The translations under genes and the position numbers were made by a program. Positions 8,502 to 41,605 of a DNA stretch of 64,000 nucleotides are shown in pieces. Position 1 is the stretch's first letter. Each line of letters opens with the position of its first letter. The notes under the pieces were generated by a model. That model was not told the origin of the DNA, searched no databases, and saw nothing but the letters and a program-made list of their open reading frames with translations. The DNA comes from an uncultured archaeon (GTDB lineage Archaea; Micrarchaeota; Micrarchaeia; Anstonellales; Bilamarchaeaceae). The DNA is taken from contig CAVTHI010000008.1 in assembly GCA_963734525.1 (NCBI GenBank), positions 20,714 to 84,713 on the forward strand. Direction: 5' to 3'.

Positions 8502-8520
8502 CCGGCCGTGGAATCACATC

Positions 8521-9720
8521 ATGGCAAACAGACTTCCACAGGGGATGCGGCATGTTGCGGCGCTCCACCACGAGGAGCATGTGCGGAGGCACGCCATATT
8601 CAAGAGCTACCATGCCGAGGACCAGCATAAGCGGATACATGAGATGATACGGGAACGGAAGATGCTGGACCCTATAGAATCTGCGTACGCCCTCCAGGAG
8701 GGGAACAAGGGGCATGCGGCCCGCGTGTCCGGCTTCCAGGGGGAATTGCCGGAAAAGATAAAGACGCTCATGCTGGTATGCGCCGATGCGCGCATGGGGG
8801 GGATGTTCGATTTCGATGATTTCGCGAGGCGCGGCATCGCCGCGGTGTATGTGGCCGGCAATGTGTCCGACTTCCTGAACACATCCGGGGTGAAGGAGGT
8901 CTTCAGGCGAATGGACAAGGATTCCTCGATAGTCATCGCCGGCCACGCCAAATGCGGCGCCGTCCATTGCGCATCGGAGAAGGAGCAATACTCCCACCTC
9001 AAGAACATCGCCGTCCTCCTCCACCTGGTCTCGCCGACCGGGGAGCTCGACAACCTGCGGGCGCAGGCCGGGACGCTCGCCGCGAACGAAGCCTTCCAGA
9101 AGCTCACCGCCAGGAAGAACGTGCGAATCGTCAGCGCTTTCGTCGATATCGCGCACCATGAGCCCCAGATACGCCTGGTGGACGGCGACAAGGCGCAGGA
9201 GCAGGATAGGGAGCTCATCGACAGGCTTGACCGGGCCTTCCGGCGTTCGAACGGAGGCATGGACCTGTCTTCGCACCAGTTCGCGCATGCCGTAGTGATA
9301 TCCGGGCCGGCGCTCCCGTTCGACGCGCGTGAGATATTCTCCGCGGGCTCGAACGAGATATTCTGCGTGACCGGCGGGGATTATGGGGGGAAGAAGCACA
9401 AGGGCCACCTGTCCGAGGCCGAGATTGCCACGGTGGAGATGGCGTCGCTGGGGATGCTCGACGAGCAGTCGGTGGCGTCAATCGAGTATTCGGTCGAGAA
9501 GAACAAATCCCAGCATATCCTCCTGCTCCATACAGACCTCGCGGTCATCGATGCATGGGAAGCGCAGTTGATAAGGAAAAGCGACATCGTCTCGAACGCC
9601 CTCATCGAAGGCAGGCTCGAGATAACGACCGCCGTGTACGATTCGAGCACCGGCCGGGTGACGATGGTGCGCCACCTGGTGAACGAGGACGCCGCGGCCG
9701 CGATTTCCTCGAAGGTTTGA
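8521..9720 (+). CDS. two-domain beta-carbonic-anhydrase-like protein, paralog B (closest to canonical beta-CA)
   Basis: 399 aa. The N-half has LQEGNKGHA, LMLVCADARMGG (C-x-D-x-R), AAVYVAGNVSD (xAGN) and SIVIAGHAKCGAVHCA (G-H-x-x-C-G-A), in the order and spacing of beta-class CAs such as archaeal Cab. The C-half (HAVVISGPALPFDAREIF..SNEIFCVTGG..HILLLHTD..TTAVYDSSTGRV) is a degenerate second copy. Confidence 0.7.
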   Translation: MANRLPQGMRHVAALHHEEHVRRHAIFKSYHAEDQHKRIHEMIRERKMLDPIESAYALQEGNKGHAARVSGFQGELPEKIKTLMLVCADARMGGMFDFDDFARRGIAAVYVAGNVSDFLNTSGVKEVFRRMDKDSSIVIAGHAKCGAVHCASEKEQYSHLKNIAVLLHLVSPTGELDNLRAQAGTLAANEAFQKLTARKNVRIVSAFVDIAHHEPQIRLVDGDKAQEQDRELIDRLDRAFRRSNGGMDLSSHQFAHAVVISGPALPFDAREIFSAGSNEIFCVTGGDYGGKKHKGHLSEAEIATVEMASLGMLDEQSVASIEYSVEKNKSQHILLLHTDLAVIDAWEAQLIRKSDIVSNALIEGRLEITTAVYDSSTGRVTMVRHLVNEDAAAAISSKV

Positions 9721-9767
9721 CGGGCGGCCCTTTCCAGCCGCACCCCCGAACAGGGTTTCCCAGCCCA

Positions 9768-26343: not shown

Positions 26344-28104
26344 TCAGATATTGGTGACTATGGCAATCAGGAGCAGGAGCCCTCCGAGGAACACGAGGGG
26401 CAGGGTTATTTTCGCCACGGAGACGATGGAATTCACCGTGGATATGACCTCTATGGACTGCTTCGCGCCGAGGACGCGGATGTCGAACCAGCGCGTGTCC
26501 GAGAAATATTTCGCGGCCTTCATGTCCGCGACCGCATCGCGGACGCCGTCGCTTATGATGGACAGGGCGGTTTCCTCCTCCTTGAGGGGGTTCAGCACCC
26601 CGCGCACCATGTTGGTCTGGTGGGTGTCGGTCGTGAACACGCCCACGATGAAGTCCCTGCCGAGCTCTTTTCCGACCGACCGGACCTCGGCCTCTATCCT
26701 GGTTCGGAAAGCAGGGGTGACGCCGTTGGAGTCTATCAGGACGATACAGTATTCCGGCTCGGACGAGATGACCGCGACCTTGATCCCCGCCTTGCCTATG
26801 ACGTCCGAATCGACGGGCCGGAACGATGCGCCAATTTTCAGGGGCTTCCCTGCAGGCACTTTCGATAGCGCATCCCGGATGGCATGGATGTAGCTGAATC
26901 CCACGATGCTCCCGGGCTCGAAGCTCGTGATGTCGCCTGTTTCAGCGTTGTGCTGGTCGATTATCATCGCCTGGCCCACGTGCTTCTGCGCCTCGAAATA
27001 CATGGCGAGGCCGAGCCCGAAGTTGACGTCTTCGGTGACCTCCGGGGCCCTGCTCAGCCCGATTATCGCCGAGTCGTTGATCCGCAAGGACTCCGCGCGG
27101 CATTCGTCCTTCTTCCCCAGCGAGATGGACACCTTCGCGTCCTTGTATGCTGCGGATTTCACTGCGGAATCGAATTCGGCGAGCAGCTTCGATATCTCGC
27201 TTGTGGCGACCGGGTTGAGGTCGTGCGTCACTGTCCCGTGGAATACGAACGTCCGGGACTTGTACCTCCGGTCTATGTCCTCGGCTATGAGGTAGGAGAA
27301 CTCGCTCCCCCCGAGGTTGCCGAAAGGGCCGTAATGCACGCACGGCGTGACGAAGAAAATCGTGCCGTCCTTCCTCGAGAAGCCGCTGACGGAAATGAGC
27401 GTCCGGACGTCCTCGCCGACCTGCGCGAATACCTTCTCGACGTCCTTGTTGTGGTAAAGCCACTGGCTGAACAGGTAGGACATCGCGTCGGTGCTGCTGA
27501 GGCCGAAGTTCTTCTTCATCGGCGCGTTGATGATGAAGAAGAACAGGGTGAGCGCGGCGAGGAGGACGAAGGCCGAGATGTAGAAACGGACCGCCACGTC
27601 GAGGAACGGCTCGCTCGTGACATGGATTGCCTGGTTGCTGATGAAGAAGAGGAGGTAGAAGAGCATCTGGAGCATGGCGAACACGATCGAGCGGTATTTC
27701 AGTATGAAGACGAACCGCGCAATCACGTACCAGAGCACGAAGACGATGGCCGAGCCGACAAGCACGACGAGCTGGGCCCACAGCGGGTTGACCCCGGCGA
27801 GCAGGAGGTTGGACGAATATGCGAAGCAGTATACGACCTCGCCTGCGAGCGCCGTCGCGGCTATCCTCCGGTACGGCATCTTCCGCACCATGAGCTTGAT
27901 GAGCGCGGAGGACAGGAGCGCGGGCAGGGAAAGCAGCATCAGGCCGTCGACTATCGCGAGTTCTATCGGCTTTCCCGAACCCATGTTGAACAGCAGGCCG
28001 GATGCGACGCCAAGTAGGACGATGGAGAGCACGATGTACCGGGCTGGGGGGAGGGTAATGAAGTAAGAAGTGAGGTTTACCGCCTGGTTGATGTTCTTGC
28101 TCAT
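26344..28104 (-). CDS. archaeal membrane protein with large soluble C-terminal domain (DUF2070-like, from memory)
   Basis: 586 aa. The N-terminal roughly 200 aa are polytopic, then there is a soluble domain and a terminal TM (LPLVFLGGLLLLIAIVTNI). Confidence 0.6.
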   Translation of the reverse strand: MSKNINQAVNLTSYFITLPPARYIVLSIVLLGVASGLLFNMGSGKPIELAIVDGLMLLSLPALLSSALIKLMVRKMPYRRIAATALAGEVVYCFAYSSNLLLAGVNPLWAQLVVLVGSAIVFVLWYVIARFVFILKYRSIVFAMLQMLFYLLFFISNQAIHVTSEPFLDVAVRFYISAFVLLAALTLFFFIINAPMKKNFGLSSTDAMSYLFSQWLYHNKDVEKVFAQVGEDVRTLISVSGFSRKDGTIFFVTPCVHYGPFGNLGGSEFSYLIAEDIDRRYKSRTFVFHGTVTHDLNPVATSEISKLLAEFDSAVKSAAYKDAKVSISLGKKDECRAESLRINDSAIIGLSRAPEVTEDVNFGLGLAMYFEAQKHVGQAMIIDQHNAETGDITSFEPGSIVGFSYIHAIRDALSKVPAGKPLKIGASFRPVDSDVIGKAGIKVAVISSEPEYCIVLIDSNGVTPAFRTRIEAEVRSVGKELGRDFIVGVFTTDTHQTNMVRGVLNPLKEEETALSIISDGVRDAVADMKAAKYFSDTRWFDIRVLGAKQSIEVISTVNSIVSVAKITLPLVFLGGLLLLIAIVTNI

Positions 28105-28140
28105 CGTTTTTTAATATCATTCTCAATGGTTTAAAACGAT

Positions 28141-28764
28141 ATGTCAGCTCTCGTATGCCCGAAATGCGGAAGGACGGAGAACGAGGTCGAATTCATCGAC
28201 GCCTTCTGCAAGGACGACTACCCGGTGAAGATAAAGGCGCCGGACCGCGTCGAAATCGAGCAGTGCACCAGGTGCAAGAGGGTCCGCATCCAGGGCGAGT
28301 GGGCGCAGTACAACCCGAGGAAGCTGTCCGACTACGTGATAGGCAAATGCAAGGGGGAATTCGACTCGGCCGGATACGACCCGGACAAGCAGGTGGCCGT
28401 GTTCGTCATGAGGGGGAACAACGCGAAAGTCGAGCTTCCGCTTCCCCTCGACCTGAAGAAGACGATATGCCAGCAGTGCTCGCGCATGAGCGGCGGATAC
28501 TTCGAGGCGATAATCCAGCTCCGCGGCGACCCGATCAGGGTCCTCGGCCATGCCCAGATGATGCTGAAGAGGCTGTCGAAAAAGAAGACGTTCGTCACGA
28601 AAGAGGAGGAGAAGGACGGCGGCGTCGACCTCTATGTCGGCAATTCCAAGGTCGTAGTGGCGCTGATGGGCGAATTGGGGCTCAAGACGCTCATGACGAA
28701 AAAGCTCGTGGGGCGCGACCAGGGCAAGAGGCTTTACCGGACGACGTTCCTGGTCAGGCTCTGA
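28141..28764 (+). CDS. NMD3-family protein (short archaeal form)
   Basis: 207 aa with CPKCGR...FCKDDYP...CTRCKRVRIQGEW...CQQCSRMSGGYFEAIIQLRG, the NMD3 Cys-cluster/AxxQxR signature. Confidence 0.8.
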   Translation: MSALVCPKCGRTENEVEFIDAFCKDDYPVKIKAPDRVEIEQCTRCKRVRIQGEWAQYNPRKLSDYVIGKCKGEFDSAGYDPDKQVAVFVMRGNNAKVELPLPLDLKKTICQQCSRMSGGYFEAIIQLRGDPIRVLGHAQMMLKRLSKKKTFVTKEEEKDGGVDLYVGNSKVVVALMGELGLKTLMTKKLVGRDQGKRLYRTTFLVRL

Positions 28765-28829
28765 TGCGGACACCCGACCGGGAGGGCGCAACGCCACACA
28801 TCCCGCCCCAGTCGCTGCGGCAGCGCAGG

Positions 28830-29811
28830 TCATTTCTGCTTTTCATTAATCCCTTGCGGGACCCTCAGCGCTTCCGGGACGGCCGGAAGGTGGAGCAGGG
28901 TGCTCTTGAACCGGACTATCAGGGCGAATGTCGCGGCCTGAGCGCCCGCGATGCCAAAAAGCGAGAAGACGAGCGTGGTGCCGCTTTCGCTCAGGCCAAG
29001 GCCCGCTATCGTCGGGCTCGGCACGAATTCGAGCATGGTGACGAGGGGCTGGAGGAAGAAGTAGAATGCGACTTCCGGGAATTCCGGTTCCGAGCGTTAT
29101 GCCGACGCTTTTGGCGGCGAAATACCATGAGAGCGAGCGGAATACCCAGCTCACCATGATGAGGAAGAGAATGTGCGGGGTTTTCCTGACGACGACGTGC
29201 GAGCTGTCCTGCATCCTCACCACCACGTCGTAAAGCCGGGAGACGACGGGCAGGCCCCTCGCGAACGAGAAGAGCGCCAGGAAGCGCTTGGAGAAGAGGA
29301 TGAGGAGCATCAGGACCACTATCGCGGTTATCACGAACGCCCCGGCTATCAGCACGAGGCCCTGCCCCGGGCCTATGAAGACGAATATTATGTAGAGTAT
29401 GGCGACGCTCCCCGCGACGACCTTGAAAATGAAATCGAACATCTGCGGGCCGAATATGGAGAGCAGCGCCTTGTCCGAGGGGACGCCGTAGTTGTAGCGC
29501 AAGGCCGCCACTGTGGCGAAATAGCCCGTCCGCGAAGGCGTGAAATCCGCGAGCAGCATGCCGACGAAATGCGAGCGGAGTATGTCGGCGAAGCGGATTC
29601 CCGCCTTCATGTCGTCTAGGAGCAGCTTTATCCGGAAGGCCATCACGACGTCCATCCCGAAAAGGCAGAGTATGCTGAGGAACAGGAGGAAGAAATCCAT
29701 CCCGGCGAGCTGAACGAGCACCTCCTGCAGGCCGACCAGGTGGAGCAGGAATGCGACGAGGACTACGGAAACAGCAGCGTTGAGAAGGATGAATATCTGG
29801 TTCCGGTCCAT
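28830..29811 (-). CDS. flippase-like / UPF0104 (lysylphosphatidylglycerol-synthase TM region) membrane protein, frameshifted near 29077
   Basis: ORF 28846..29811 is convincing up to ...AKSVGITLGTGIP. The sense then continues in ORF 28830..29036 (..FYFFLQPLVTMLEFVPSPTIAGLGLSESGTTLVFSLFGI...). The frames meet at the ccggg run. Confidence 0.7.
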
Positions 29812-29815
29812 TTCC

Positions 29816-30632
29816 TCAGACCTCCCTGAACTTGAGCTGGAACGGCAAGTCCTTGGTGTCCGGGGCCAGGCTTGAGGACGGGGGGATGCTCCTGTTGACC
29901 TTGTTGATTACGGCGAGGGCGGAGTCTATCCGTTCCTGGCTGAGCGCATGCGGGAAGCAGTTGAGGAAGCACATCAGGTTCTCGGCGCAGAGGTAGAGAA
30001 GCGGCCGACAAGTTCCCGTGGAGCTCCCCGACGCTCGAATCCAGGGTGGTGCCCATGCCCATCGTGGGCGTGTTGTGGTTGATTCCGAATATGCTCGAGT
30101 GCGACTTCTGGCAGAACGCCCAGTACTGGCTGTAGAAGAGCCTCTCGTAATGCTCCTTGGAGTAAAGCGCCTTCAACATCTTCTGGAAGCTGTATTTCCT
30201 CCGCAGGTTCTCGAGCGCGCGCTCGCGGGTGTTGGACCATTTCCCGCTTTTGATGAGCATGAGCTTCTCGCCGTCCAGTGCGCTCATCTCCCGGTAATTC
30301 GCGTATATGCCGTCATCGGTGAGGTATGCATACTGCCAAATTATGGTCTCGAAGACGGTCCGCATGTTGTTCCCCGCTGGGTCCAGCAGGCCTCGCCGGA
30401 TGAGCTGGTAGGACGCCGAGAGGTAGATGCAGTTCCTGTAGAAGAACGCGAGGAGGTCCTGTCCCCGGGAATCCAGCTTCGCATCATGGGACAGCGAGCC
30501 GTAGAGCGAGAACGACGCGGAAACCGCCTCTTCGATTAGGGAGCATTCGGCAGGATATCGCCTGGCGCTTTCAGAATAGACCTTTTCGTTGAGTGCGGCA
30601 ATTGCGCCATGGTCCTGGTTCATTTCCGCCAT
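29816..30632 (-). CDS. hypothetical protein, frameshifted near 30012
   Basis: ORF 29763..30656 is coherent up to ...DSSVGELHGN. My own translation of a second frame then gives CRPLLYLCAENLMCFLNCFPHALSQERIDSALAVINKVNRSIPPSSSLAPDTKDLPFQLKFREV-TGA at 29816. The start is at 30656 or 30632. Confidence 0.5.
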
Positions 30633-30837
30633 ATTGCCTTCCCGTCCTTCCCGCATTCATTCTTTCCCTAGTGACCAGATACGCAGTCGCAATGATTATT
30701 TATAAGGTGCTCCAGGGGCAGGCGCTCCAGGGACGGACGCCCCGGTGCCAGGATGCGCCGCAGGCGCACCCCGTGCTCAATTCCTGCCGAGGGGCCGCCC
30801 TTTCCGAATCTGGCGGCTCGGCATTCGATAGCAACAG

Positions 30838-31086
30838 TCAGTCTATGATGACGTCCTTTCCCGTCAGTTTTTTGTAAATCGTCTCGCTCAGTGTCTTGTC
30901 GTCAACCTGGAATGCGAGGTATATGTCCGGCCTGTCATCCCGCAGCTTTGTGAAGAACGCGGACTTCTCGTCGCGGACGCGGACCGCCTCCTTCGCATCG
31001 CCCTTCTCGAGCCGGCCCTTCCAGGCCGCGACCTTCGCCTTTGCATCCAGAAACGCCTTGGATTTCACAAGTTCGCCTAATTTCAT
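30838..31086 (-). CDS. small soluble protein following the HExxH gene (possible cognate partner)
   Basis: ORF 30838..31113. The ATG at 31086 lies 4 nt after the stop of 31091... The sequence is MKLGELVKSKAFLDAKAKVAAWKGRLEKGD... Confidence 0.5.
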   Translation of the reverse strand: MKLGELVKSKAFLDAKAKVAAWKGRLEKGDAKEAVRVRDEKSAFFTKLRDDRPDIYLAFQVDDKTLSETIYKKLTGKDVIID

Positions 31087-31090
31087 CACA

Positions 31091-32237
31091 TCACCTGAAA
31101 CGTTCAACAGCAATCTGATTATAGCACTGCGCCATTATCGGATTCGATTCCCATGCATGGTAATCAATTCCCGCCGCGCCGACGCGCCCCATTATGTACG
31201 AAAATGCATCGGGAGCGGAACTTTGGGCCATAAGCGCATCGAACGTGCCGGCCCCCAGCTTCTCGTCCGTCAGCCTGCGGACTTCCGTGAAGTCGCCGCT
31301 GAAATAAGCCTGCCGGAGCGGCTCCTGCCCGACAACCTGCTCCAGCGCGAAGCAGACCGAGGTTTCGAATGTGTATGCGACCCCGTTCGGAGAATAGCCG
31401 TTCGCCCTGGCAAGCTCGTTTGCAAGGAGTTCGGTGGTGCCCTCGTGGATGTTCCACCCGCCCACCCTTGGCTGGATGATTGCCCTTCCGGAATCGTCGC
31501 GCCAGCGGACCGTCTGGCCGCCACCGAGATACGCCGCGTAGTGGAGCTGCTCGTGGGCAAAAAGCTTCAGGACATCCCCTTCCTCCCGATCCGCCTGGTA
31601 TGCGCCAACGATTATATGGTTGGTTCCAGGGTAATATGTCCCGGGGTGGAAACCGCCGGTAGTGCGCGCCATGGTCATGAGCCAGGAATCGTCTTCCCCG
31701 GTGATTACGGGCGGCGCGCCCGTGTAGCGCCGATAAACGGTTTCGCCAAGAAATTCGCTGGTGAACCATGTTCCGGATACTCGTGCTGCTGTACCCATCG
31801 ATTGTCGCCTGGGCCTGCGCCAGGTCCTCGTCGCTCAGCGCCTGTGGCGGTGGCACGAACGCTGTCGCGCTGCCCGGATTTTGCGCTGATGATGACGGCC
31901 CCCGGGCAAGCTCCAGGACGGCATTCGAATGCTCCCGCGCCTCTTCGGCATTCGCGAAGACCTGGCTCGGGCGTTCAATTCCCCTCGCAGCTTCGGTGAA
32001 TGCCTGCTCGGCCCGCTCGGGCCGATGGGCAAGGATAAGGCTGCGGATTGTATCCAAGTTGACAGCCAGCGAACGTGTCGAATCGACGGCCGCCCGGGTT
32101 GTTGATTCGAGCCGCTGCTCCTCCGTCTGCAGGCGAATTGGGACTGCCCCTTCCACCCTGCGCCGCTGGTCGGTGACCACGCTGCCGGTCGCATGCTCTG
32201 CATCCTCTACCCTCCGTTCAAGCTTGGTTCCGCTCAT
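31091..32237 (-). CDS. HExxH zincin-like protein with helical N-terminal region, copy 2, frameshifted near 31795
   Basis: The C-part is ORF 31091..31798 (PPVITGE, YPGTNHI, LFAHEQLHYAAYLGGG, NIHEGTTELLANE). The N-part lies in ORF 31164..32300 starting at the ATG at 32237 (MSGTKLERRVEDAEH...AQATID). The frames meet at the CCC run at 31794-31796. Paralog of 32670..33884. Confidence 0.6.
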
Positions 32238-32368
32238 CGTGCCCCCTCCATGTTTGCTATTCCCCTGAAGCATCCCGAAAGCACAGGATTGCTTTCCCAT
32301 GCGGTGAAATTGATTCCTGCCGGGGCCATCTTCCCCGTGATGAACTCAAGCGCCTTCTCACCGGCCAT

Positions 32369-32653
32369 TCAGTTTGCCCTCTGGGATTCGAGCGTGTCGC
32401 ATATCTCGGTGAACCGGGCCAGCCGCTCCACCGAGGATTGCAGGTCCTTTTTCCCCTTCAGCGACTCCTTCGCCCAGCCGGAGAGCAGCTTGTGGGAAAG
32501 TTGGAGGTATTCTATCCGCTTCTCGAGCTTTTTCGGCTTCCGCCTTGCAGCTTCCCATTCGGAAAGGGCGACCTCGATTTTCGAAATCGACTCGCTCACC
32601 TTCATCCGCGTCTCGCTTTCAAGCTCGAACGTCTTTTCCATCAAATCTTCCAT
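32369..32653 (-). CDS. small helical protein, copy 2
   Basis: ORF 32369..32698; the ATG at 32653 (MEDLMEKTFELESETRMKVSESISKIEVALSEWEAARRKPKKLE...) is preferred. Paralog of 33885..34175. Confidence 0.55.
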   Translation of the reverse strand: MEDLMEKTFELESETRMKVSESISKIEVALSEWEAARRKPKKLEKRIEYLQLSHKLLSGWAKESLKGKKDLQSSVERLARFTEICDTLESQRAN

Positions 32654-32669
32654 GGCATGCACCTTATAA

Positions 32670-33884
32670 TCAATTTCCCCTTGAGCCGTGTATCGCATTC
32701 GGGTCGCGCTCGGCCTCCCTTCGCGCCTCTTCCGCCTCGCGGTGCTCCTCCACCACGCCGGCGGCCCTCACGAGGGCATTCCGGTCCCATGACGCGAGCC
32801 TTGCGGACATCCCCCGCTCCCCGAGGCGCCCACGGAGGTAGAAGAATGCGCTCGCGCCGCTTCCGGCATCCGCGATGCCCTCGAAGGTCCCGGCCCCGAG
32901 CTGCCTGTCCACGAGCCTGCGGACCTCGCTCAGGTCGCCCGTCAGGTAGGCGTTGCGAAGGACATCGGCCCCGACAAGCTGCTGCAGGTAGAATGATACG
33001 GTGGTCTCCGCGGCGTATGACACCGTCGGTGGCACATGGCCGCGGTCCCGTGTCATCTGCTGGGCGTGGAGCTCGGTCATCCCCTCATGAAGCCATGAGA
33101 GGACCTCGCGGAACACGGGCTCCCCGTTCGGCCCCCTCCAGCGCAGGGAATACCCGCCACCTAACATCGCCGAGTAATGGAACATCTCGTGCGCGAGGAT
33201 GCACCTGCGCTCAGCTTCGCTCGGGTAGCGGTCCTCGTCGAATATGCCCTCGGCGTCAATCGCGATGTGGTTCGTACCGGGATACTGCAGGCCGACGGTG
33301 TGCCCGGCAAGGCCGTTGACTATGCTGACATGGCGGAAGAACTGGTGCGTCTCGCCCGTGATGACGGGCGGCGAATTCAGGAAGCGCGAGGCGACTGCCT
33401 GCCCGACCGCACCCGGCCCGAACCAGCCCCGCACTTCGGCGGCCATGCGCTCGAGTTCCCCGGCGCGCGGCGCGCGCGCCGCAGTCGCATCCGCGGGGCG
33501 CGAATCGGGATGCATCGCTTTCAGCAGCGCTCTCGATGCGACATCCTCTTCCCGCGAATGCACCCTCGCCGCCTCCGCGGACTGGAAGTACCTCTCCGGC
33601 CGCACATGGCCGCGGGACGCAGTACGGTAGCGGGCCTCGGCGGAGAGCGCCTCGGCGACCGGCCCGGCATGCGGGACGGAAAATGCGGGGTTTATCGTCC
33701 GGGCGTAGGATGCGAGGGCGGCAAGGGACTCGCGGGCCGCCGCGACGGAGGCCCGGGCCCTTTCGCCACCTGATGAAACGGGAGCCGGGGCGACATGCGC
33801 CCCGACGATGCGCGCCTGGCGCGACAGCGCCTGCGCCGCACCGGCGGCCTCGTCCATCCTTTTCTCAAGCTGAGGCTGCCCCAT
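32670..33884 (-). CDS. HExxH zincin-like protein with helical N-terminal region, copy 1
   Basis: 404 aa with PPVITGE, YPGTNHI, ILAHEMFHYSAMLGGG and WLHEGMTELHAQQ. The N-terminal roughly 170 aa are Ala/Arg-rich and helical. Confidence 0.65.
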   Translation of the reverse strand: MGQPQLEKRMDEAAGAAQALSRQARIVGAHVAPAPVSSGGERARASVAAARESLAALASYARTINPAFSVPHAGPVAEALSAEARYRTASRGHVRPERYFQSAEAARVHSREEDVASRALLKAMHPDSRPADATAARAPRAGELERMAAEVRGWFGPGAVGQAVASRFLNSPPVITGETHQFFRHVSIVNGLAGHTVGLQYPGTNHIAIDAEGIFDEDRYPSEAERRCILAHEMFHYSAMLGGGYSLRWRGPNGEPVFREVLSWLHEGMTELHAQQMTRDRGHVPPTVSYAAETTVSFYLQQLVGADVLRNAYLTGDLSEVRRLVDRQLGAGTFEGIADAGSGASAFFYLRGRLGERGMSARLASWDRNALVRAAGVVEEHREAEEARREAERDPNAIHGSRGN

Positions 33885-34175
33885 CTAGCTCATCCCCGCA
33901 TCATCTATCTTGCTGCAAATCTCATAGAAACGCCGGAGGCGCATTGTAGCCGACGCCTCGTCCTTCGGGCCTTTTTGCGAATCGCGCGCCCATGCGGACA
34001 GCAGGCCGTGGAAGCGCCGCAGGCTCCGGACCTGCCCCTTCAGGTCGGCGGGCTTGTCCTTCGACGAATCCCATTCCGATATCGCCGCCTCGATTTTCGA
34101 CAATGAATCGCTGACGATTTTCTGCGTCTCCTCCTCGAGCCGGAGCGGGCCCTTCTTTGCGCCGGGCATAAGCAT
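33885..34175 (-). CDS. small helical protein, copy 1, translationally coupled to orc1/cdc6
   Basis: This is the last 96 aa of shadow ORF 33885..35498: MLMPGAKKGPLRLEEETQKIVSDSLSKIEAAISEWDSSKDKPADLKGQVRSLRRFHGLLSAWARDSQKG... Its ATG overlaps the cdc6 TGA by 1 nt, and its stop abuts the ATG of the next gene. Confidence 0.55.
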   Translation of the reverse strand: MLMPGAKKGPLRLEEETQKIVSDSLSKIEAAISEWDSSKDKPADLKGQVRSLRRFHGLLSAWARDSQKGPKDEASATMRLRRFYEICSKIDDAGMS

Positions 34176-35233
34176 CACCTCAGCCTGAACACCTTCGGCC
34201 GGAGCATCCCTTCGGCCGGGATTTCGCGGGATTCCACTATCCCCTTCTTCTCGAGAAGCTCGAGGTAGTTCCTTATCTGCCTTTTCGTCTTGGGGATTTT
34301 CAACGCGAACTTCTCGTAAATGTCCGACGAGCCCAACTCGCCGCCCTTGAGGATTTCCATGAGGAGCAGCTCCTCGCTGCTCAGCTTCAGGTCCGGCAGC
34401 TTGAACGCCGGCTCCTGCATCAATGCGTCCTCCAGGTCCTGGAGCAGGATTTTCGTCCGCCCGGCCTTCTCGGCGTGCTTGGCCGCCTTCCAGAGGCGCT
34501 CGATGGCCACGCGGGCCGAGCCGTCCTCTACCGAGCGGGCGATTTTCAGCAGCAGCCTCTCGTCGAATCCGCCGGGAACGATGGCGCGCTCGGCGCGCAC
34601 GCGCAGGATGGAGAGCAGCTGCTCCTCGCCGTAGCGGGCGAATTCCATCTCGGAAAAACGCAATGAGCTGCGTATGCGCGAATCCAGCCTGGAAAGGAGG
34701 GCCTTGTTGTTCGTCAGGCCGATTATCCCGAACGTGAGCCGCTGCTCGTTCGAGCGGGCGGCGACGTAAAGCAGCTTGTCGTGGCGCAGGCCGTCCATCT
34801 CGTCGAGGACGAGGAGTATAGGCTTCTTGTAGTTCTTGACGAACTGCATTATGCGGTCGAATATCTCGTCCGCGGCGAGCCCCCGCCGCGGAAGCGGGAG
34901 GCGCATCTCCTCCACGATGCGGTTGTACACCGCCATCTGCGTCGGGTTCTCCCAGCAGTTCACGTAAACGGGAAGCACGGCCGACGAATGCTCGGCCAGC
35001 TGCTTGAGGATGTATTTTACGCAGGTTGTCTTCCCCGTCCCGGACACGCCGTGAATGAAGAGGTTGTTCGGCGTCCTGCGCGCGAGCAGGGGCTTTATGG
35101 AATCCGCGATTGCGGAGAGCTCCCTCTCGCGGTGAAGGAGCGCGTCGGGCAGGTAGTCCGGGAGCAGGACCTCTTCCGAGGCTATCAGCGAGGAACCGCG
35201 GTCCGCCCCGTCGAAATAGTTCGGCATGCACAT
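34175..35233 (-). CDS. cdc6: Orc1/Cdc6 replication initiator
   Basis: 352 aa with LPDALLHRERELSAI, Walker A IHGVSGTGKTT, Walker B LLVLDEMD, and a C-terminal winged helix (YEKFALKIPKTKRQIRNYLELLEKKGIVESRE). Confidence 0.95.
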   Translation of the reverse strand: MCMPNYFDGADRGSSLIASEEVLLPDYLPDALLHRERELSAIADSIKPLLARRTPNNLFIHGVSGTGKTTCVKYILKQLAEHSSAVLPVYVNCWENPTQMAVYNRIVEEMRLPLPRRGLAADEIFDRIMQFVKNYKKPILLVLDEMDGLRHDKLLYVAARSNEQRLTFGIIGLTNNKALLSRLDSRIRSSLRFSEMEFARYGEEQLLSILRVRAERAIVPGGFDERLLLKIARSVEDGSARVAIERLWKAAKHAEKAGRTKILLQDLEDALMQEPAFKLPDLKLSSEELLLMEILKGGELGSSDIYEKFALKIPKTKRQIRNYLELLEKKGIVESREIPAEGMLRPKVFRLR

Positions 35234-35334
35234 CCATTTGGCGGGGAAGGTTTAAATGCACCGCGGAATGCCGGATTTTCCGCGGAAATTTCTTCGCAAT
35301 AACCCATAAAACGCTTCCCGTCCCATGTAGCTTC
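35234..35334. promoter_or_regulatory. divergent promoter region (cdc6 / ATP-cone gene)
   Basis: tttaaa at 35251-35256 lies about 20 nt upstream of the cdc6 ATG. cataaaa at 35305-35311 lies 27 nt upstream of the ATG at 35335. The 10-bp palindrome TTCCGCGGAA sits between them. Confidence 0.4.
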
Positions 35335-36165
35335 ATGGAGCAGAAGCAGATATGGGTGGTGAAAGAAAGCGGCGAGAGGGAGCCGTTCGACAGGCAGAAG
35401 GCGAGGGGGGCGCTCCGGCGTACCGGCATGAGCGGCAAGGAGTCGGACACGGCGCTCGCAAGGCTCGAGGAGAGGCTCCACGACGGGATTACGACCAAGA
35501 AAATTTACGCCATACTCTATGAAATCATCGAGGGCATGAAGCCGCAGGTGTCGCACAAGTTCAACCTGAAGCGCGCGCTCTTCGACATCGGACCGGAGGG
35601 GTACGAGTTCGAGGACTTCATCGGGAAGCTGCTCGTGACGCAGGGATACGGGGTCGAGCTGAGGCAGATTATGACCGGCATGTGCGTCAGCCACGAAATC
35701 GACGTCCTCGCGCAAAAGAACAGCCACTCGTACTCGATTGAATGCAAGTTCCACAACCAGTACGGGACGCGGTGCAGGATACAGACCGCGCTATATGTAT
35801 ATGCCAGGTTCCTCGACCTGCGCGAAGGCTCGAAGAAAGGGCTTTGCAAGAAGGTGACGAAGCCCTGGCTGATAACGAACACGAAATTCTCCGAGGACGT
35901 CATCAGGTACGCCGAATGCATGGATTTCCCCCTGCTCGGGTGGCGGTATCCGCTGCAGGACGGCCTCGAAACGCTCATCGACAGGACGCGCTGCTACCCG
36001 GTGACGGTGATACCCATGAGCCGCGATATAATCGGCCGGCTGCTTTCGCGCAAGATAGTGACGATTGCCGACATACCCGAGAATGCGCAGGGGCTTTCAG
36101 ACCTGAGCGGGATCCCGCTCGCCAAGGCGCGCGAGGTCGTGGAGAGGGCCGAATACGCGAGATGA
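35335..36165 (+). CDS. ATP-cone domain + PD-(D/E)xK (Mrr-like) nuclease-fold protein
   Basis: ORF 35110..36165; the ATG at 35335 is preferred. The N-terminus (IWVVKESGEREPFDRQKARGALRRTGMS...) is ATP-cone-like. The core has EFEDFIGKLL...HEIDVLAQKNSHSYSIECKF (D...E-x-K). Confidence 0.7.
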   Translation: MEQKQIWVVKESGEREPFDRQKARGALRRTGMSGKESDTALARLEERLHDGITTKKIYAILYEIIEGMKPQVSHKFNLKRALFDIGPEGYEFEDFIGKLLVTQGYGVELRQIMTGMCVSHEIDVLAQKNSHSYSIECKFHNQYGTRCRIQTALYVYARFLDLREGSKKGLCKKVTKPWLITNTKFSEDVIRYAECMDFPLLGWRYPLQDGLETLIDRTRCYPVTVIPMSRDIIGRLLSRKIVTIADIPENAQGLSDLSGIPLAKAREVVERAEYAR

Positions 36166-36906
36166 GGGCGCTTGCGAATGGACTGATTCGAGAGCGAGAC
36201 TGAGCGGGCTGGATACGCTGCGCGGGGTGGCAATCACGGCGATGATTGCATACCACCTCATGTTCGACCTGTGGTACCTCAAAATCGCGGAATTCGACCT
36301 GATGTCGCTTCCGCTGTCGATATTCCAGCATTCCATAGGCACGCTTTTCCTCCTGCTCGTCGGCATATCCCTCACGCTCAGCGAAAGCCGCAACAAGGAA
36401 GGGTACATGCACCATGTGAAGCGGGCGGCGTACCTTGGCGCGGTCGCGCTTTCGATAACGCTTGCCACCTGGGTGTATCCCCACGAGGGCATGATAACCT
36501 TCGGCATAATCCACTGCATCGCCCTCAGCGTCCTCCTGGCGCCGCTGTTCTTCGGCCTTGGGAGGCTGAACATCCTCCTCGGCCTGCTCCTGATTAGCGG
36601 CCGGGATTCCTCGTCCAGGAAATCCGGACCGATTCGCCCTACCTGTTCTGGCTCGGGATAACTACGTCGGAATACACCGCGCTCGACTTCTACCCGATAA
36701 TCCCGTGGCTCGGCGTGGTGCTGATTGGCGTGTCCGCCGGGCAGATGATTTATCCGGGGGGCCGGGTCATGGACGCGCGCAAGGAGACGAGGCTCTCCAG
36801 GGCGCTCGCGTTCGCCGGGAGGCATTCGCTCGCCATCTACCTCATCCACCAGCCGGTGCTGATGGCAATCCTATTCGCATACAAGGCATTCGTATTAGGC
36901 GGCTAG
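36162..36906 (+). CDS. DUF1624 / heparan-alpha-glucosaminide N-acetyltransferase-like membrane acyltransferase, two apparent frameshifts
   Basis: The ATG at 36162 overlaps the upstream TGA (ATGA). The sense switches to RLSGLDTLRGVAITAMIAYHLMFD (ORF 36227..36661), then near 36600 to GFLVQEIRTDSPYLFWLGITTSEYTALDFYPIIPWLGVVLIGVSAG (ORF 36715..36906 and upstream). Confidence 0.65.
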
Positions 36907-37145
36907 GCGGATTGGACTGGCGCGGGGGCAGGAACACCCAGCCACGGCAGAGCGCCTCATCTGCCGGAAGCGCGGCAAGCCGGGGTAAGGATTGGCGTAT
37001 TAATCAGGGGAGGGACTGGAAGGGGGAAAGACGAAAGGGATAGACGAAAATAGGGATGATGAAATAAGAACAGCGAAAATAAGGGGATTTGATATTTGAA
37101 AAAAGTATTTTATAAAAAAAATATAGAAAGATAAAAAGAAAAAAA

Positions 37146-38441
37146 TTATTTCTTCTGCCCCCTGCTTCTCCAGTAGACTATGCCCAGGACAAGCAGGAGC
37201 AGCAGCACGACAAGCGCGAGCATCGCGCCCAAATCAGGGCCGGTTGCCGCGGGCTTCGTGGGCTCCTCGGGCTGCGCCTGCGGGAAGGCCTTCACTTCTA
37301 TGACCTTCACGACGCTGCCGTTCTGGAGGAGGGCGACCCTGTATATGCCTTCGGTGTTGAGGGGCAAATCGAAGTTGCCGTTCTCATCGGTCCTTCCGGT
37401 GAAGTTCTTGCCGGCCGGGTCCGTGTACACGAAGTCGCAGAGCACGCATGGCACGCCGTTCTCCTTGGCCTCGCAGGTCTTCTTGTCGCCTACGATGCCG
37501 GTAGTCGGGCAGCTCAGGTCGTTCTGGATGCACTTGTGGTCAAGGCAGGAAAAGCCGCTTGCGCATGTCGGGCATCCGGCTTCTGTGCCGCACTCGTATC
37601 CGTATGGCACGAACGCGTGGTTCTCGACCACGCCGCACTGGCCTGTGACGTCCTTGCACGAGCCGCCTGCGGCCCCTACGGGTATGTCGCAGTATTTCGA
37701 GGCCGGGCATTGGCCGTCAGCGGTGCACTCGAACTGCGGCTTCTTGGTGCACAGGTGGTTCTGGCAGAGCTCGTCCGCCGCGCACTGCGAATCGGAGCAG
37801 CACGCGTAAGGCACGCACTGGTGGTTCTCCACCTTGCCGCATTCGCATGGCACTTTCACGCACACTTGCGAGACGCACTCCTGGTTCAGGAGGCAGTCCT
37901 CGTCCTTCGTGCAGCCGGGCGTGACATTCTGGCCGCATTCAGAGCATGATACCGTGTTCTTCCCGGTGACGGTCGTTACCGCGTATCCGGACTGGGATGC
38001 CTTGACTTCGAGGTCCTCGAGGTCGCAGCCCGAGAACGTGAATTCGTCCGACTCGGTGTCGCCGGCGGCTATGATGTTGCCGTCGGAGTCCTTGACCACG
38101 ACGTGGGCATCGTTGCCTGCGCCGCTCACTTCCACGGTGTTGGCGTCGCAGTCCGAGCTGAAGCTTATGTCAAGCGACGGGGAATGCGTGTCGGTGTCGT
38201 CGCTGCAGCCGTAGCGGTATCCGTAGTAACCCGCGCAGTCGTATCCGTAATTGCTCAGGTCGCAGGGATAACACCCGCCCCAGCAGTTCATGCTACAGAC
38301 CCAGTAGTTCATGGAGCCGTAATCATAGAACGCCGGAAAACCTGTGGGCGAGCCACAGCAAAATGGAATCGCAGGCTGTGCGTACACGCCTGGGATAAGC
38401 ATCAACAGGGCCAAGACGGCCGTAAGATATATTAGTCTCAT
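37146..38441 (-). CDS. cysteine-rich surface protein with C-terminal TM anchor
   Basis: These are the C-terminal 431 aa of chimeric ORF 37146..41195. Signal peptide MRLIYLTAVLALLMLIPGVYA, about 60 Cys, a duplicated CG-x-VENH-xx-VPY motif, a CarboxypepD_reg-like beta domain (FTGRTDENGNFDLPLNTEGIYRVALL), then TM plus RSRGQKK. TTTTTAAAA at 38462-38470 lies 25 nt upstream of the ATG. Confidence 0.75.
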   Translation of the reverse strand: MRLIYLTAVLALLMLIPGVYAQPAIPFCCGSPTGFPAFYDYGSMNYWVCSMNCWGGCYPCDLSNYGYDCAGYYGYRYGCSDDTDTHSPSLDISFSSDCDANTVEVSGAGNDAHVVVKDSDGNIIAAGDTESDEFTFSGCDLEDLEVKASQSGYAVTTVTGKNTVSCSECGQNVTPGCTKDEDCLLNQECVSQVCVKVPCECGKVENHQCVPYACCSDSQCAADELCQNHLCTKKPQFECTADGQCPASKYCDIPVGAAGGSCKDVTGQCGVVENHAFVPYGYECGTEAGCPTCASGFSCLDHKCIQNDLSCPTTGIVGDKKTCEAKENGVPCVLCDFVYTDPAGKNFTGRTDENGNFDLPLNTEGIYRVALLQNGSVVKVIEVKAFPQAQPEEPTKPAATGPDLGAMLALVVLLLLLVLGIVYWRSRGQKK

Positions 38442-38452
38442 GACAAGGTCGC

Positions 38453-40610
38453 TCACTTTAGTTTTAAAAAGCTTCTGCATTGCTTGCCCAATTCTACACG
38501 AAATGACACAAGCAATGAAATGGCCGCGGACGCCAAAAGAAGCGCGCCGATTCCGTGCGGGCCGAGCGTGCCGTCCGAGATGGGGAGGGCCAGCAGGGCG
38601 AGGGGGGCGGCGAGGAACGCGGCCGCGGGGGGAGGGGCGCCGGACAAAAGGGCCAGCGCGATGAGCCAGGCGAGCAGGAAGAACGAGAGGACCAGCGGGA
38701 AAATAGTGTTCGTCACGGTGGTCGGCCCGGCATATTCGAAGGCGTTGTCGAGCCTGTACCATGTGCTTCCGGGGGAACCGTTGAATCGGAGCGTCGAATC
38801 CGGCGGCGATACGTACACCACGTACCGCGAGGGGGAGCCCGTGACGCGGTATGTCGCGGGATTGATGCGCGTGTACTCGGCCGGGGATAACGCACGGAAC
38901 CCCGCCGTTCGCCTTGTAGAAGCGCGTGAAGCTGTCGTTGCCGGGGTCGTCCGTGGAAAGGAACGGGCCGGCCGCAAGGCGGTTCCTGAAGAGGTAGAGC
39001 GTAGAGCCCTCGAAAACCAGCTCGATGTCCTCGACCCCGCCCTTCCTCTTGAAAAGCCATAGGTAATCGTCGCTGTCTGAATATGCCTTGAGAACGACGA
39101 TATATTTCACGTTGAGCGGAACGAGAAGCTCGGCGGTATTGTTTATGCGCTGGCGCTTGTCGAAAAGGTAGGTCATGTAGCCCCCGTATGTGTCCTTGAT
39201 GTCGCTGTAGACATGCTCGGTCATGACGCTCTGGGAAACGATGACGGGCTTGCTGAACACCTGGCCCGCAGGGCTCGCGAGCGTCTTCTGGTTGGCATTC
39301 GACCAGTAGTACGTGTTGTAGAGGTAGGGGGGCAGGACGAGTATGTTCGTCTCGCTCGTGTCCCCGGATATTATGCGCGCGGCCTCGAGCCAGTCCGTAG
39401 GATACTGCGTCGGCCTTATCTGCCCGAGCAGGCCGAAAAAGCCGAAATTGAATATGACCGGGACGAGAATCGCGAGCGCGAGCAGGACCGGCTTCCAGCG
39501 GGGGCGGGAGCGCATCAGGTGGCTCACGCCGTAGGACGACAGGAGCGCATAGCCGAGGCACATCATCCCCACGAACTTCTGCGAATCGCGGAAGAGCAGG
39601 TAAATCGGGAATTGCGTGCCGAGCAAAGTGAAAATGAAGGACAGCGGACTGGCCTCGCCGAGCGAGAGAAGGAACCCCACGACGAGAAGCGAAAGGAGGA
39701 AGAGCGCATGGAGGGCGCGCTCCTTGAGAAGCGATACGAAGCCGATGGACGCGGCCGCGACGATGAGGAGGAACGGGACCCACCACAATGGGAAGACGTC
39801 CTTGGTGTATACGAACCCGCCCCTCCAGAACCCGTGCATCGAAGCGAGCGACGCGCCCAGCGACATCCCCATCGTCATCGGCTTGAAATCCGCGAAATAT
39901 GCGTCGGGCGATGCGGGCGCGTACGTCTTTCCGAAAAGCATCAGGGTGGGGAGTATCCAGTAGAGGTTCATGGCCAGGATTATCCCGCCGAGCAGGGCGA
40001 GCCTGGACACGAGGGCGCGCTCAAACCCGTTCTTCAGGATATGGAAAACGAGCATCAGCGCGAAGCAGGCGAGCAGGATGATGACGCCGTGCGAGCTGAT
40101 GGAGGCGAACGCTACGAGCAGCGCGCTTGCGGCGAAAGGCATCCGCTCCTTCGGCTTTTCGAGGAATTGCGAGAATGACAGCAAGGCGAGGGGCCAGACG
40201 GAGTACGAAAGGAGGAGGGACCAGTGGCCCGCGAGGAACCTGACGTATATGAACGGATTCAGCATGTAAAGCAGGCCTGCAACATACCGGGCGTTCCCGT
40301 GCTCCTTCGGAAGGGAGAAGTGCGCGCCGGCCCCGGCAAGGAAGAGGATGGAGAAAAGCAGGAGCTTCTCGACGCCCTCGGTTCCAATTATGTCCGAAAC
40401 CGCCCCCATCGCCATCCTCAGCGGGAAGTACGCCCCATACGAGCTCGGCTGGATTCCGTAGAAGTCATCGAACTTGATGTCGGAAAGCGACTGGGGGCCG
40501 AACTGCATGTCGAGCGCGAGATAATAGCCTGGCCCGAGGAGGGGGAGCATGACGAGGAATGCCATCAGCAGGTATACCGATGCCGCGAGCTTGCTATCCA
40601 GGTCCGTCAT
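38453..40610 (-). CDS. large polytopic membrane protein, putative GT-C-type glycosyltransferase/polymerase, frameshifted near 38902
   Basis: It starts at the ATG at 40610 (MTDLDSKLAASVYLLMAFLV...) and has more than 12 TM. The soluble C-part ends ...TRFYKANGG. The sense then continues in ORF 38453..38977 (FRALSPAEYTRINPATYRVTG...terminal TM). The function is inferred from context. Confidence 0.6.
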
Positions 40611-40750
40611 GAAGAAATCCCGCCTTCGCGCCTTCGCAGACGCAGATATGGCTTCTTGCGGGTAAAGCATTAAAACAAGGCTATAAGGCGGGGTATGAGG
40701 GGGGCAATGGCGAGAGCCATGGGACGGGCAAAAGGGTGGCGGCAGGCCGC

Positions 40751-41605
40751 TCATTTGCCCCGGTCCGCGTAAGAAGCCAGGAACCCAAGGGCGAACGCGG
40801 ACGCTTCGAGCGACTTGAGCGCGAGGAGGCACGCGCCCACGAGCGGCTTTTTGGCTATGACGCGGAGGCGGCCGAGGAACAGGAGGCGGCCGGGCGACGC
40901 GGACTTTCCGGCGCCCGGATGCTTTTTGGAATAAAACGCCCGGGATGACCGGCCGTACCTGAATGCCTTCCGGAGGCAGCCATAAAGCGACAGGTTCCCG
41001 GCATCGTGGAAAAACACGCGCGAGGTGCGGCCGGTCGTGGAGGACTGCGCGATGCGGCAGTGAAGGTCGCGGTCCTCCCCGAACAGCAGGCCGGGGTCGT
41101 AGCCATTGGACGATTCGAAAGCCGCCCGCGTGAAGGCGCGCGCGGATTCCATGTCCGCATCGCCCAGGTAGCACTCCTTTTCGAGTGCCTTGCACCGGGC
41201 TATCAGGCCTTCCCCCATGCCCAGTTCAGGCACGACCAGGGAACCGTGCGAATCGATGCGCCGGGCGATGTCCCCGAGAAGGCCGGGTTCCATCACCATG
41301 TCGGAATCCATCGAAAGGAATATCCCGCCGCGTGCGAGCCTGAAGCCCTCGTTGCGGGAAGCGGGGACTGACAAGTCCGCCTCGAGGAAGCGGTCGGATT
41401 GCCTCCTCGCGATTTGCGCCGTGCCGTCATCGCTGAACCCGTCTACGACGATGATTTCGTAGCCGGTGAAGTCCTGGGCGCGTATCGAATCAAGGCATTC
41501 CCGGATTGTCGTGGCGCTGTTTTTCGTCGGTATGACTATGCTTATGAGAGGCGGCGAAAGCGCGTCTGCGGCCTTCTTGCGAACGGTTGCGGTCGTCACG
41601 GGCAT
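40751..41605 (-). CDS. family 2 glycosyltransferase
   Basis: 284 aa with ISIVIPTKNSATTIRECLDSIRAQDFTGYEIIVVDGFSDDGT and SMDSD. Confidence 0.85.
   Translation of the reverse strand: MPVTTATVRKKAADALSPPLISIVIPTKNSATTIRECLDSIRAQDFTGYEIIVVDGFSDDGTAQIARRQSDRFLEADLSVPASRNEGFRLARGGIFLSMDSDMVMEPGLLGDIARRIDSHGSLVVPELGMGEGLIARCKALEKECYLGDADMESARAFTRAAFESSNGYDPGLLFGEDRDLHCRIAQSSTTGRTSRVFFHDAGNLSLYGCLRKAFRYGRSSRAFYSKKHPGAGKSASPGRLLFLGRLRVIAKKPLVGACLLALKSLEASAFALGFLASYADRGK

Follow-up and report, generated by a model that had tools for sequence, protein, structure and literature searches.

A cassette of an undescribed gluzincin-type protein and two small partner genes in the orc1/cdc6 operon of a micrarchaeon

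We analyzed a 64,000-nucleotide stretch of DNA from an uncultured archaeon of the Micrarchaeota (Bilamarchaeaceae; assembly GCA_963734525.1, contig CAVTHI010000008.1, positions 20,714 to 84,713), referred to here as the window, in which a gene for the replication initiator Orc1/Cdc6 is followed by genes for small helical proteins, for HExxH proteins with zincin-like motifs and for an 82-amino-acid (aa) protein, p82 (Table 1). An earlier note, made from the DNA letters alone, had placed these genes behind cdc6 on the same strand, and all of them were found where it put them, on the minus strand, along with the reported overlap between the cdc6 TGA and the ATG of small A, which have one base in common (TGATG; another ATG lies 6 nt on). 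Small A follows cdc6, and HExxH-1 follows small A, within 0-4 nt; at the second of these junctions (TAGATG) the stop directly abuts the start. Further downstream, the stop of a 44-codon remnant open reading frame (ORF) overlaps the ATG of HExxH-3 (ATGA). The cdc6 product matched TIGR02928 with 201.5 bits (cut-off 181.3), as well as AAA_22, AAA_16 and Cdc6_lid, and the Walker motifs, A (GVSGTGKT) and B (LVLDEMD), are readable in its sequence; it did not reach the equivalog-level models. Homologs of all cassette genes are conserved in other genomes in unchanged order, so the locus is not a chance arrangement. These results show that cdc6 heads a multi-gene operon carrying a lineage-specific cassette of small, HExxH and p82 genes, a rare arrangement for an archaeal orc1/cdc6 gene.

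Table 1. Features of the orc1/cdc6 locus, with positions counted from the first letter of the window
Feature	Position	Strand	Description
orc1/cdc6	34175-35233	-	352 aa, first operon gene; AAA+ domain, lid, winged helix
Small protein A	33885-34175	-	96 aa, predicted three-helix protein
Hypervariable block (small A and the first ~215 residues of HExxH-1)	33230-34175	-	Divergent allele relative to strain L005
HExxH-1	32670-33884	-	404 aa; ~140-aa helical N-terminal region, then ~235-aa predicted gluzincin domain
Predicted gluzincin catalytic domain of HExxH-1	32745-33467	-	Residues 140-380
Small protein B	32369-32653	-	94 aa, paralog of small A
HExxH-2 remnant	32234-32368	-	44 codons, left by in-frame deletion
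HExxH-3	31091-32237	-	Would be 381 aa; HEQLH, HEGTTE; one extra base at 31781
p82	30838-31086	-	82 aa, conserved downstream partner
Divergent intergenic region	35234-35334	.	101 bp between cdc6 and the ATP-cone/Mrr_cat gene; presumed promoter region
ATP-cone/Mrr_cat gene	35335-36165	+	276 aa, restriction-endonuclease-like

Homologs of each product were mapped on all loci, with one genome per species taken for the scan; loci are labeled below by L-numbers. A word-index search returned only five other close homologs of the 404-aa protein, with the gene order on their contigs as in the window, and the species-level scan found 20 loci in 14 metagenome-assembled genomes (MAGs), all labeled Candidatus Micrarchaeota or 'archaeon', which assigns the window to the chromosome of a DPANN archaeon of the Micrarchaeota. 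The syntenic order begins on the other strand with HGSNAT-like and ATP-cone/Mrr_cat genes and continues with cdc6 and genes for 95-aa, 403-aa, 94-aa, 438-450-aa, 373-380-aa and 82-aa proteins; beyond p82, the relatives carry genes for DUF5677, LPG synthase, NMD3, DUF2070, dCMP deaminase, Rpr2 and polyprenyl synthase. The recurrent unit is a triad of a small gene (~93-95 aa), an HExxH gene (hereafter HEx, ~370-450 aa) and p82 (~82 aa), and at least 10 of the 14 Micrarchaeota genomes have it immediately after cdc6; some have it elsewhere. The linkage of small and large genes noticed in the window recurs in other genomes, with a small gene directly upstream of 23 HEx genes, and the 82-aa protein, previously described as unrelated, proved to be a conserved member of the triad that is encoded directly downstream of 20. 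Across ten syntenic loci and the window, the gap between cdc6 and the small gene ranges from an overlap to 31 nt, and p82 is translationally coupled to HEx, the junctions of the two frequently overlapping. At L016, HEx comes directly after cdc6 with a gap of 45 nt. The minimal form, cdc6-small-HEx-p82, is found at L020 and L011, and tandem expansions are found in other lineages; at L012 and L013, triads flank cdc6 on both sides. Triads also occur remote from cdc6 (L015, L021-L024), in two cases (L021, L022) between exosome genes and SBDS.

The association of HEx with p82 extends to distant members of the family. Downstream of a 931-aa relative (P0129; HEx profile E 2e-18) comes a clear p82 homolog (E 3e-30) that ends in KIIID, and the end of a 475-aa relative (P0065) is overlapped by an 83-aa gene whose resemblance to p82 was not compared. 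These results indicate that p82 is a conserved cassette member and, of the partners of HEx, the most persistent one. The 931-aa member and its p82 homolog lie between an XPD-like (DEAD_2) helicase gene and an AAA+ gene resembling the large subunit of RFC (L027, 3222-9286), a second, independent neighborhood with replication or repair genes. The DUF5677 gene was considered as a fourth component and rejected, being separated from p82 in several loci and absent from the cassettes remote from cdc6; the gene that separates the two in several loci presumably encodes a proline-dehydrogenase-like protein, as we read it from its sequence. At L010, a 4.2-kb insertion (5802-9744) is located within the array, between HExxH-1 and small B, and its products are a KaiC-like ATPase with two domains (563 aa), a membrane protein, a sensor of the HAMP/PAS type and another protein of 189 aa; the cassette array thus tolerates insertions. 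The ATP-cone/Mrr_cat gene is paired divergently with cdc6 in all of the syntenic Micrarchaeota loci, at 55-98% identity.

The HExxH proteins are 370-450 aa long and combine a variable helical N-terminal region with a constant C-terminal domain of ~235 aa. This is the reverse of what the earlier note had proposed: the enzymatic C-terminal domain is constant, and it is the N-terminal part and the upstream small gene that vary. HExxH-1 contains the zincin-like motifs already pointed out in it, PPVITGE, YPGTNHI, HEMFH (33177-33191) and WLHEGMTE with Glu267 (33084-33086), and the zincin residues are conserved in its relatives. When 1.84 billion cluster representatives were searched exhaustively with a profile, 305 relatives were recovered at E <=1e-3, 159 of them at E <=1e-10, and conservation was counted on representatives that are <=50% identical. 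The metal-binding and catalytic residues are kept almost without exception in these ~150 relatives (His232 in 148 of 149, Glu233 and His236 in 149 of 149 each), as are the downstream Glu267 (150/151), Gly268 (147/151) and Tyr290 (146/152), and the spacing from HExxH to the downstream Glu in W.HEG.TE is mostly 35 residues.

The structure of HExxH-1 residues 140-380 was modeled with AlphaFold2 from an 80-sequence alignment, yielding a confident model (predicted local distance difference test score, pLDDT, 96.7; predicted template modeling score, pTM, 0.93) in which a sheet, with GTNHI as its edge strand, is followed by the HExxH helix (84-103 of the model), a hairpin, the Glu helix (124-141 of the model) and a helical bundle. 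The full-length model, in which the first 95 residues scored below 50, had a pLDDT of 68.8 and was uninformative in Foldseek. With the domain model, Foldseek searches of the PDB and BFVD returned no significant neighbor, and none in the PDB with E <0.9; the weak, non-significant matches were to the zincins selecase (TM-score 0.47 normalized to the target, over ~92 columns), IrrE, lethal factor and SprT. At the sequence level, the HEx profile aligned with both metal motifs of the M61 aminopeptidase 7xyo (E 2.1e-4) and of ColH (E 0.15) among PDB sequences, the alignments being restricted to the stretch of the metal motifs, and a single HEx sequence had no match there. Pfam searches of the window proteins at E up to 1 gave no match for small, HEx or p82, nor did NCBIfam, PHROGs or PADLOC scans, in agreement with the earlier remark that the family was not recognizable. 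The catalytic domain of the window proteins has no significant match to M61, M9 or M1 in Pfam; among 80 family members, one matches M1 and one M9 (both E ~6e-3), and five have weak SprT-like matches (best E 5e-4). In the literature, we found neither the HEx family described nor a protease linked to cdc6 in Micrarchaeota. Given the conserved HExxH and Glu, the zincin order of elements in the model and the profile matches to M61 and ColH, the C-terminal domain of HEx is predicted to be a clan MA(E)-type gluzincin, nearest in sequence to M61 and M9 and belonging to an undescribed family.

The dN/dS values of the HEx-cassette genes, 0.12-0.27, indicate that these genes are functional, with HEx under purifying selection. 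Some relatives are long proteins (778-3693 aa) in which the domain occupies the C-terminus or lies close to it and is the only one recognizable, and the genomic contexts that we looked at are archaeal. Segments resembling transmembrane (TM) helices are present in 12 of 155 family representatives and in none of the Micrarchaeota copies. Within the variable N-terminal region, a motif G.E.P..F....EAR.HS is found at residues 92-110 of HExxH-1 (33555-33610) and at equivalent positions in all paralogs, with Gly92, Pro96, Ala106, His109 and Ser110 near-invariant; the confidence of the full-length model exceeds 50 from residue 96 and is high from ~100. This motif might be a latency element resembling a pro-segment. 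The HExxH-2 paralogs of the two closest relatives (L001, 11530-12882; L005, 11524-12840) carry, between the N-terminal domain and the catalytic domain, an additional segment of ~35 aa that is hydrophobic or amphipathic (GFWEGLWDGI..VFSAIG.F...I). This segment is absent from HExxH-1 and HExxH-3 and may be a membrane-interacting element.

The small proteins share the pattern LE.ET..VS.S[IL]SKIE.A[LI]SEW..K.KP...W..S.KG.KD...RL..F.EIC, given here for small A, and E14, A31, W35, P42, L52, W62, S66, G69, R79, F83 and C87 are invariant in the family alignment. Small B is 41% identical to small A, bearing out the suggestion that the two are related copies. The C-terminus of p82 is conserved as LTG[KR][DE][VI]IID, and 18 of 20 p82 tails terminate in two hydrophobic residues and Asp. 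Profiles of small and p82 found nothing meaningful in the PDB, comparisons among the profiles of small, the HEx N-terminal domain and p82 gave no internal homology, and neither a helix-turn-helix (HTH) nor a known antitoxin fold was found in small or p82 by Pfam and PDB profile searches. In mirror-tree comparisons of evolutionary distances, small correlated with the HEx N-terminal domain at a partial r of 0.50 and with the catalytic core at 0.25, which weakly supports a pairing of small with the N-terminal domain.

Further evidence on this pairing comes from comparison with the closely related strain of L005. Protein identity between the two is 99% for cdc6, 98% for DUF2070 and for ATP-cone/Mrr_cat and 97% for NMD3; within the cassette it is 96% for small B, 90-95% for HEx-3, 79% for p82, 76% for HEx-1 and 63% for small A. 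Nucleotide identity is 92-98% in cdc6, 67-82% (about 70%) from the cdc6 stop to ~33230 and then 95%, and the divergent block has sharp edges, ending at about residue 215 of HEx-1, just upstream of the HExxH helix. The rate of synonymous substitution (dS) is 1.25-1.29 in the block compared to 0.09-0.19 in the flanks, and dN/dS in the block is 0.26-0.27. A ~7-fold difference in dS with such sharp edges indicates replacement by a divergent allele and not mere faster drift. Judging from these alignments, small A and the N-terminal half of HEx-1 were exchanged as one unit by recombination, and, having been swapped together, the two are presumed to be cognate partners. Among more distant relatives, the first HEx is 44-61% identical and cdc6 85-92%, and both the composition of the array and its copy number differ between genomes.

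The window also contains eroded paralogs. The 44-codon ORF, MAGEKALEFITGKMAPAGINFTAWESNPVLSGCFRGIANMEGAR, consists of the first 8 and the last ~36 codons of a third HExxH paralog, HExxH-2, fused together. HExxH-2 is intact in L001 and L005 (438-450 aa), and its loss from the window amounts to ~1175 bp, in-frame, between imperfect 12-bp direct repeats, (A/G)AGGCGCT(T/G)GAG; contigs of related strains in the public runs X2 and X3 continue into HExxH-2 sequence at 32345. The deletion, with its clean microhomology junction, is very likely real. The ancestral array of the window strain would then have been small-HEx1-small-HEx2-HEx3-p82, as inferred from these comparisons. For HExxH-3, which the earlier note had described as a second HExxH copy broken by a frameshift, the break was traced to one extra base, relative to L005, at 31781, and the count of copies was not confirmed, the window having originally had three large paralogs. 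Omitting this base restores ...DGYSST|VSGTWFTSEF..., identical to L005, and intact orthologs are 373-380 aa long. The best of the public runs, X1, contains a near-identical but distinct strain at low depth, and its reads span neither this base nor the deletion junction.

Several neighboring genes carry comparable lesions. Relative to L005, other uncompensated single-base insertions are located in DUF5677 (~30000), LPG synthase (29091) and a large ORF (~38891), with further sites at 36595/36606, 36173/36183 and 28797/28811, and these split the DUF5677 gene (29763-30656 and 29816-29974) and the LPG_synthase_TM gene (28846-29811 and 28830-29036) and merge or shift two genes into a 1349-aa ORF (37146-41195). 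In a long-read MAG (MFD03804.bin.2.25; L011, 8278-9330), cdc6 itself is in three ORFs, probably owing to assembly frameshifts. Given the extra bases in neighboring conserved genes and the split cdc6 of L011, an assembly error is a serious possibility for the HExxH-3 frameshift, and HExxH-3 is either a pseudogene or the product of such an error. The 1349-aa ORF, on the minus strand, corresponds in L005 to two separate genes (718 and 445 aa); its N-terminal part is a large membrane protein of the multi-pass kind, and its C-terminal part is Cys-rich, probably surface-exposed, and ends in a TM anchor (LALVVLLLLLVLGIVYWRSRGQKK). Taken together, the tandem duplication recognized earlier belongs to a wider pattern of tandemly amplified copies, allele replacement, deletion and possible decay, as in conflict or effector cassettes.

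The earlier note had raised the question of whether this cdc6 might belong to an integrated element. The cdc6 gene is 66-99% identical across species, with synteny to housekeeping genes throughout, and its dN/dS of 0.06 indicates strong purifying selection. No ORB-like repeats were found near it by a repeat search of 28000-38000 and of the 101-bp spacer, and the 64-kb window contains no tRNA or Rfam features. No relatives were found in IMG/VR and no HEx relative in PLSDB, where plasmid Cdc6 proteins are <=30% identical to that of the window. The gene thus looks to be a chromosomal, strongly conserved one. An integrated mobile element with its own cdc6 was rejected on the strength of the constant flanks across species, the lack of a tRNA and the lack of viral or plasmid HEx relatives; integrase genes were not screened.

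Based on the data presented above, we tentatively favor the view that the cassette is an effector/adaptor/inhibitor-like module for conflict or for interaction with the host archaeon of an episymbiont, while judging it slightly more probable that this view is wrong than that it is right. The HExxH proteins, given their conserved residues, would be active zinc endopeptidases. Small would serve the variable N-terminal region as a dedicated adaptor or chaperone, binding to it and determining the specificity for partner or target. The dedicated inhibitor or immunity-type partner that restrains the conserved catalytic domain would be p82. The invariant hydrophobic-hydrophobic-Asp tail of p82 may occupy the active-site cleft as a reaction product would; the C-terminal tails of metallocarboxypeptidase inhibitors act in this manner. 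The position in the cdc6 operon would provide constitutive, growth-coupled expression, and a role in replication would not be required. The multi-copy, hypervariable and decaying pattern would fit conflict or host interaction in an episymbiont with a small genome, and the presence of several HEx paralogs in genomes of small size counts in favor of this view, DPANN genomes being only ~1 Mb.

A number of observations weigh against it. We infer the roles of small and p82 from gene order, conservation and co-variation only, and in the mirror-tree comparison p82 did not specifically track the catalytic core (partial r 0.14), while up to three HEx genes share one p82. The combination of a variable N-terminus with a constant enzyme is the reverse of that in polymorphic toxins, and the Micrarchaeota HEx proteins were found to lack signal peptides, TM segments and any known domain for trafficking or secretion. 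The high dS of the exchanged block reflects recombination and not positive selection as such, given its dN/dS. Finally, a conflict system would not usually keep so stable a place behind cdc6 across deep divergence, and the position could equally reflect a housekeeping link.

A more specific form of the effector view would take the cassette as a contact-dependent system of DPANN archaea, in which a signal-less zinc protease passes through a cell-cell junction to the host or a rival, the swappable small protein and N-terminal domain set the specificity of delivery or target, and p82 protects the producer. Attachment to other archaea is the way of life of DPANN archaea such as the Micrarchaeota, and, to our knowledge, almost nothing is known of the proteins that they use on hosts, rivals or viruses. 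We regard this form as rather unlikely. If true, it would mean that placement in the orc1/cdc6 operon ties the dose of effector to each round of replication, and that the cassette is the first recognizable effector/immunity-type system of Micrarchaeota, with a polarity opposite to that of bacterial polymorphic toxins.

The absence of export signals counts in favor of an intracellular module akin to toxin-antitoxin (TA) or abortive-infection systems, in which HEx would be a cytoplasmic protease toxin kept inactive by small (antitoxin-like) and/or p82 (inhibitor) and freed by virus or stress, with no export. The small gene precedes HEx, with a stop codon that overlaps or abuts the start of the next gene, as in type II TA pairs, the compact core weakly resembles the IrrE/ImmA-type zincins, which are commonly paired with small regulators, and the co-swapping of partner and toxin parts in a fast-evolving, multi-copy and decaying locus would be consistent with such a module. 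However, TA and defense systems are usually patchy and mobile, whereas at least 10 species-level genomes have the cassette fixed behind cdc6, and the viral and plasmid collections (IMG/VR, PLSDB) contain none; moreover, it has three components, not two, it matches no PADLOC model, and neither small nor p82 has an HTH or a known antitoxin fold. We consider this explanation unlikely.

The fixed position could instead point to a housekeeping or regulatory protease tied to replication, with HEx, a small adaptor and the p82 regulator controlling turnover of Orc1/Cdc6 or the replisome, or clearing DNA-protein crosslinks, which would account for co-transcription with the initiator. The adjacency of cdc6, small and HEx, with very short gaps, persists from 99% down to 66% cdc6 identity, the distant HEx and p82 pair stands between the XPD-like helicase and RFC-large-subunit-like genes, and five members have the weak SprT-like Pfam matches. 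However, the whole region is syntenic, and the adjacency may be merely inherited; other members have neighbors of unrelated kinds (exosome/SBDS, eRF1, tRNA synthetases, metabolic genes). Allele replacement, gain and loss of paralogs and a first HEx of 44-76% identity beside a cdc6 of 85-99% would be unexpected for a core regulator, and the third metal ligand is a Glu, of gluzincin type, rather than the His of SprT. In our judgment, a replication-tied role is improbable. Very improbable is the absence of any joint meaning, in which a lineage-expanded peptidase family (e.g., for general proteolysis or peptide scavenging) would lie by chance downstream of cdc6 with the small ORFs as unrelated conserved neighbors: short intergenic gaps are common in compact DPANN genomes, the functions of all three proteins are only predicted and some family members have no small or p82 neighbors, but the small-HEx and HEx-p82 adjacencies recur at other chromosomal sites and in very distant relatives, small and the N-terminal half of HEx were exchanged as one block, and there are no signal peptides for extracellular scavenging.

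The cassette offers a testable candidate: a predicted gluzincin family that is undescribed, comprises ~300 clusters at 50% identity in public data and has no Pfam model or solved relative. Each protease is accompanied by two dedicated small partners, several copies are present in very small genomes, and the N-terminal half is diversified by cassette exchange. Should the effector interpretation be true, it would open the host-interaction biology of DPANN archaea; should the cassette instead be linked to replication, it would imply proteolytic control of an archaeal initiator. With either reading, the domain merits the definition of a family and a structure.

Among known systems, the clan MA(E) gluzincins (M61 7xyo, M9 ColH/ColG, M1) are similar to HEx in having HExxH on the active-site helix, a Glu ligand on the next helix, ~30 residues on, in W..EG.(T/A)E, and a preceding edge strand (G[TY].. 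in ColH, GTNHI in HEx). The C-terminal helical bundle of HEx is distinct from theirs (Y290, AY..GD, LG.G.F), as are its helical N-terminal region and its two dedicated small partner genes. ImmA/IrrE (COG2856) and SprT-like proteins likewise have a compact cytoplasmic zincin core beside a small partner, and Foldseek matched the HEx domain to IrrE (E 1.9, PDB), an IrrE-like protein (E 0.14, BFVD) and SprT, none of them significantly; in contrast with these proteins, the partners of HEx have no HTH and its metal ligands are of gluzincin type. PADLOC returned no meaningful match for small, HEx, p82 or DUF5677, and only generic P-loop matches for cdc6.

Metallopeptidase toxin domains have been cataloged as Tox-MPTase1-5, HopH1 and anthrax lethal factor (LF)-like domains (Zhang et al. 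2012, PMC3482391). Like the domain of HEx, they are zincin HExxH domains, in their case used as the heads of toxins or effectors, and the domain can be located C-terminally in long proteins, as in the HEx members P0092, P0094, P0105 and P0129. Unlike them, HEx has no Pfam Tox-MPTase match and no RHS, FilH or other delivery repeats, and the Foldseek match to lethal factor is at E 3 only. Polymorphic toxins are characterized by a constant N-terminal trafficking domain and diverse C-terminal toxin domains swapped by recombination (Zhang et al. 2012, PMC3482391), and WXG and LXG are cataloged in the same paper (PMC3482391). In the cassettes, every copy carries the same predicted C-terminal gluzincin, and no recognizable export signal or domain (signal peptide, WXG/LXG, RHS, PVC) was found, with no domain in Pfam scans and no TM-like or signal-like segment in the Micrarchaeota copies. 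Thus, of the likeness to polymorphic toxins and effector cassettes that had been proposed, the gene order stands, matching an effector/chaperone/immunity layout, while the definition of a polymorphic toxin does not apply, and none of the candidates named for the family (Tox-MPTase, WXG, LXG) had a Pfam match. The position of p82, immediately downstream in 20 cassettes and after P0129, is that expected of an immunity gene, which p82 may be.

The turn motif of the small proteins is SEW[DE]..K.KP and not WXG, and no WXG or LXG Pfam model matched. A parallel in layout is found in the LXG cassettes of bacterial type VIIb secretion, which consist of a small helical Lap helper, a protein with a helical N-terminal domain and a C-terminal enzyme, and a small downstream immunity gene; we know of no type VII secretion system in archaea. 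The cassettes described here differ from these in that the enzyme of HEx is constant while its N-terminal part and the helper are variable, and in that p82 is no more than a putative immunity protein. They resemble them in gene order, in the presence of tandem paralogs and in the part played by recombination in shaping the locus.

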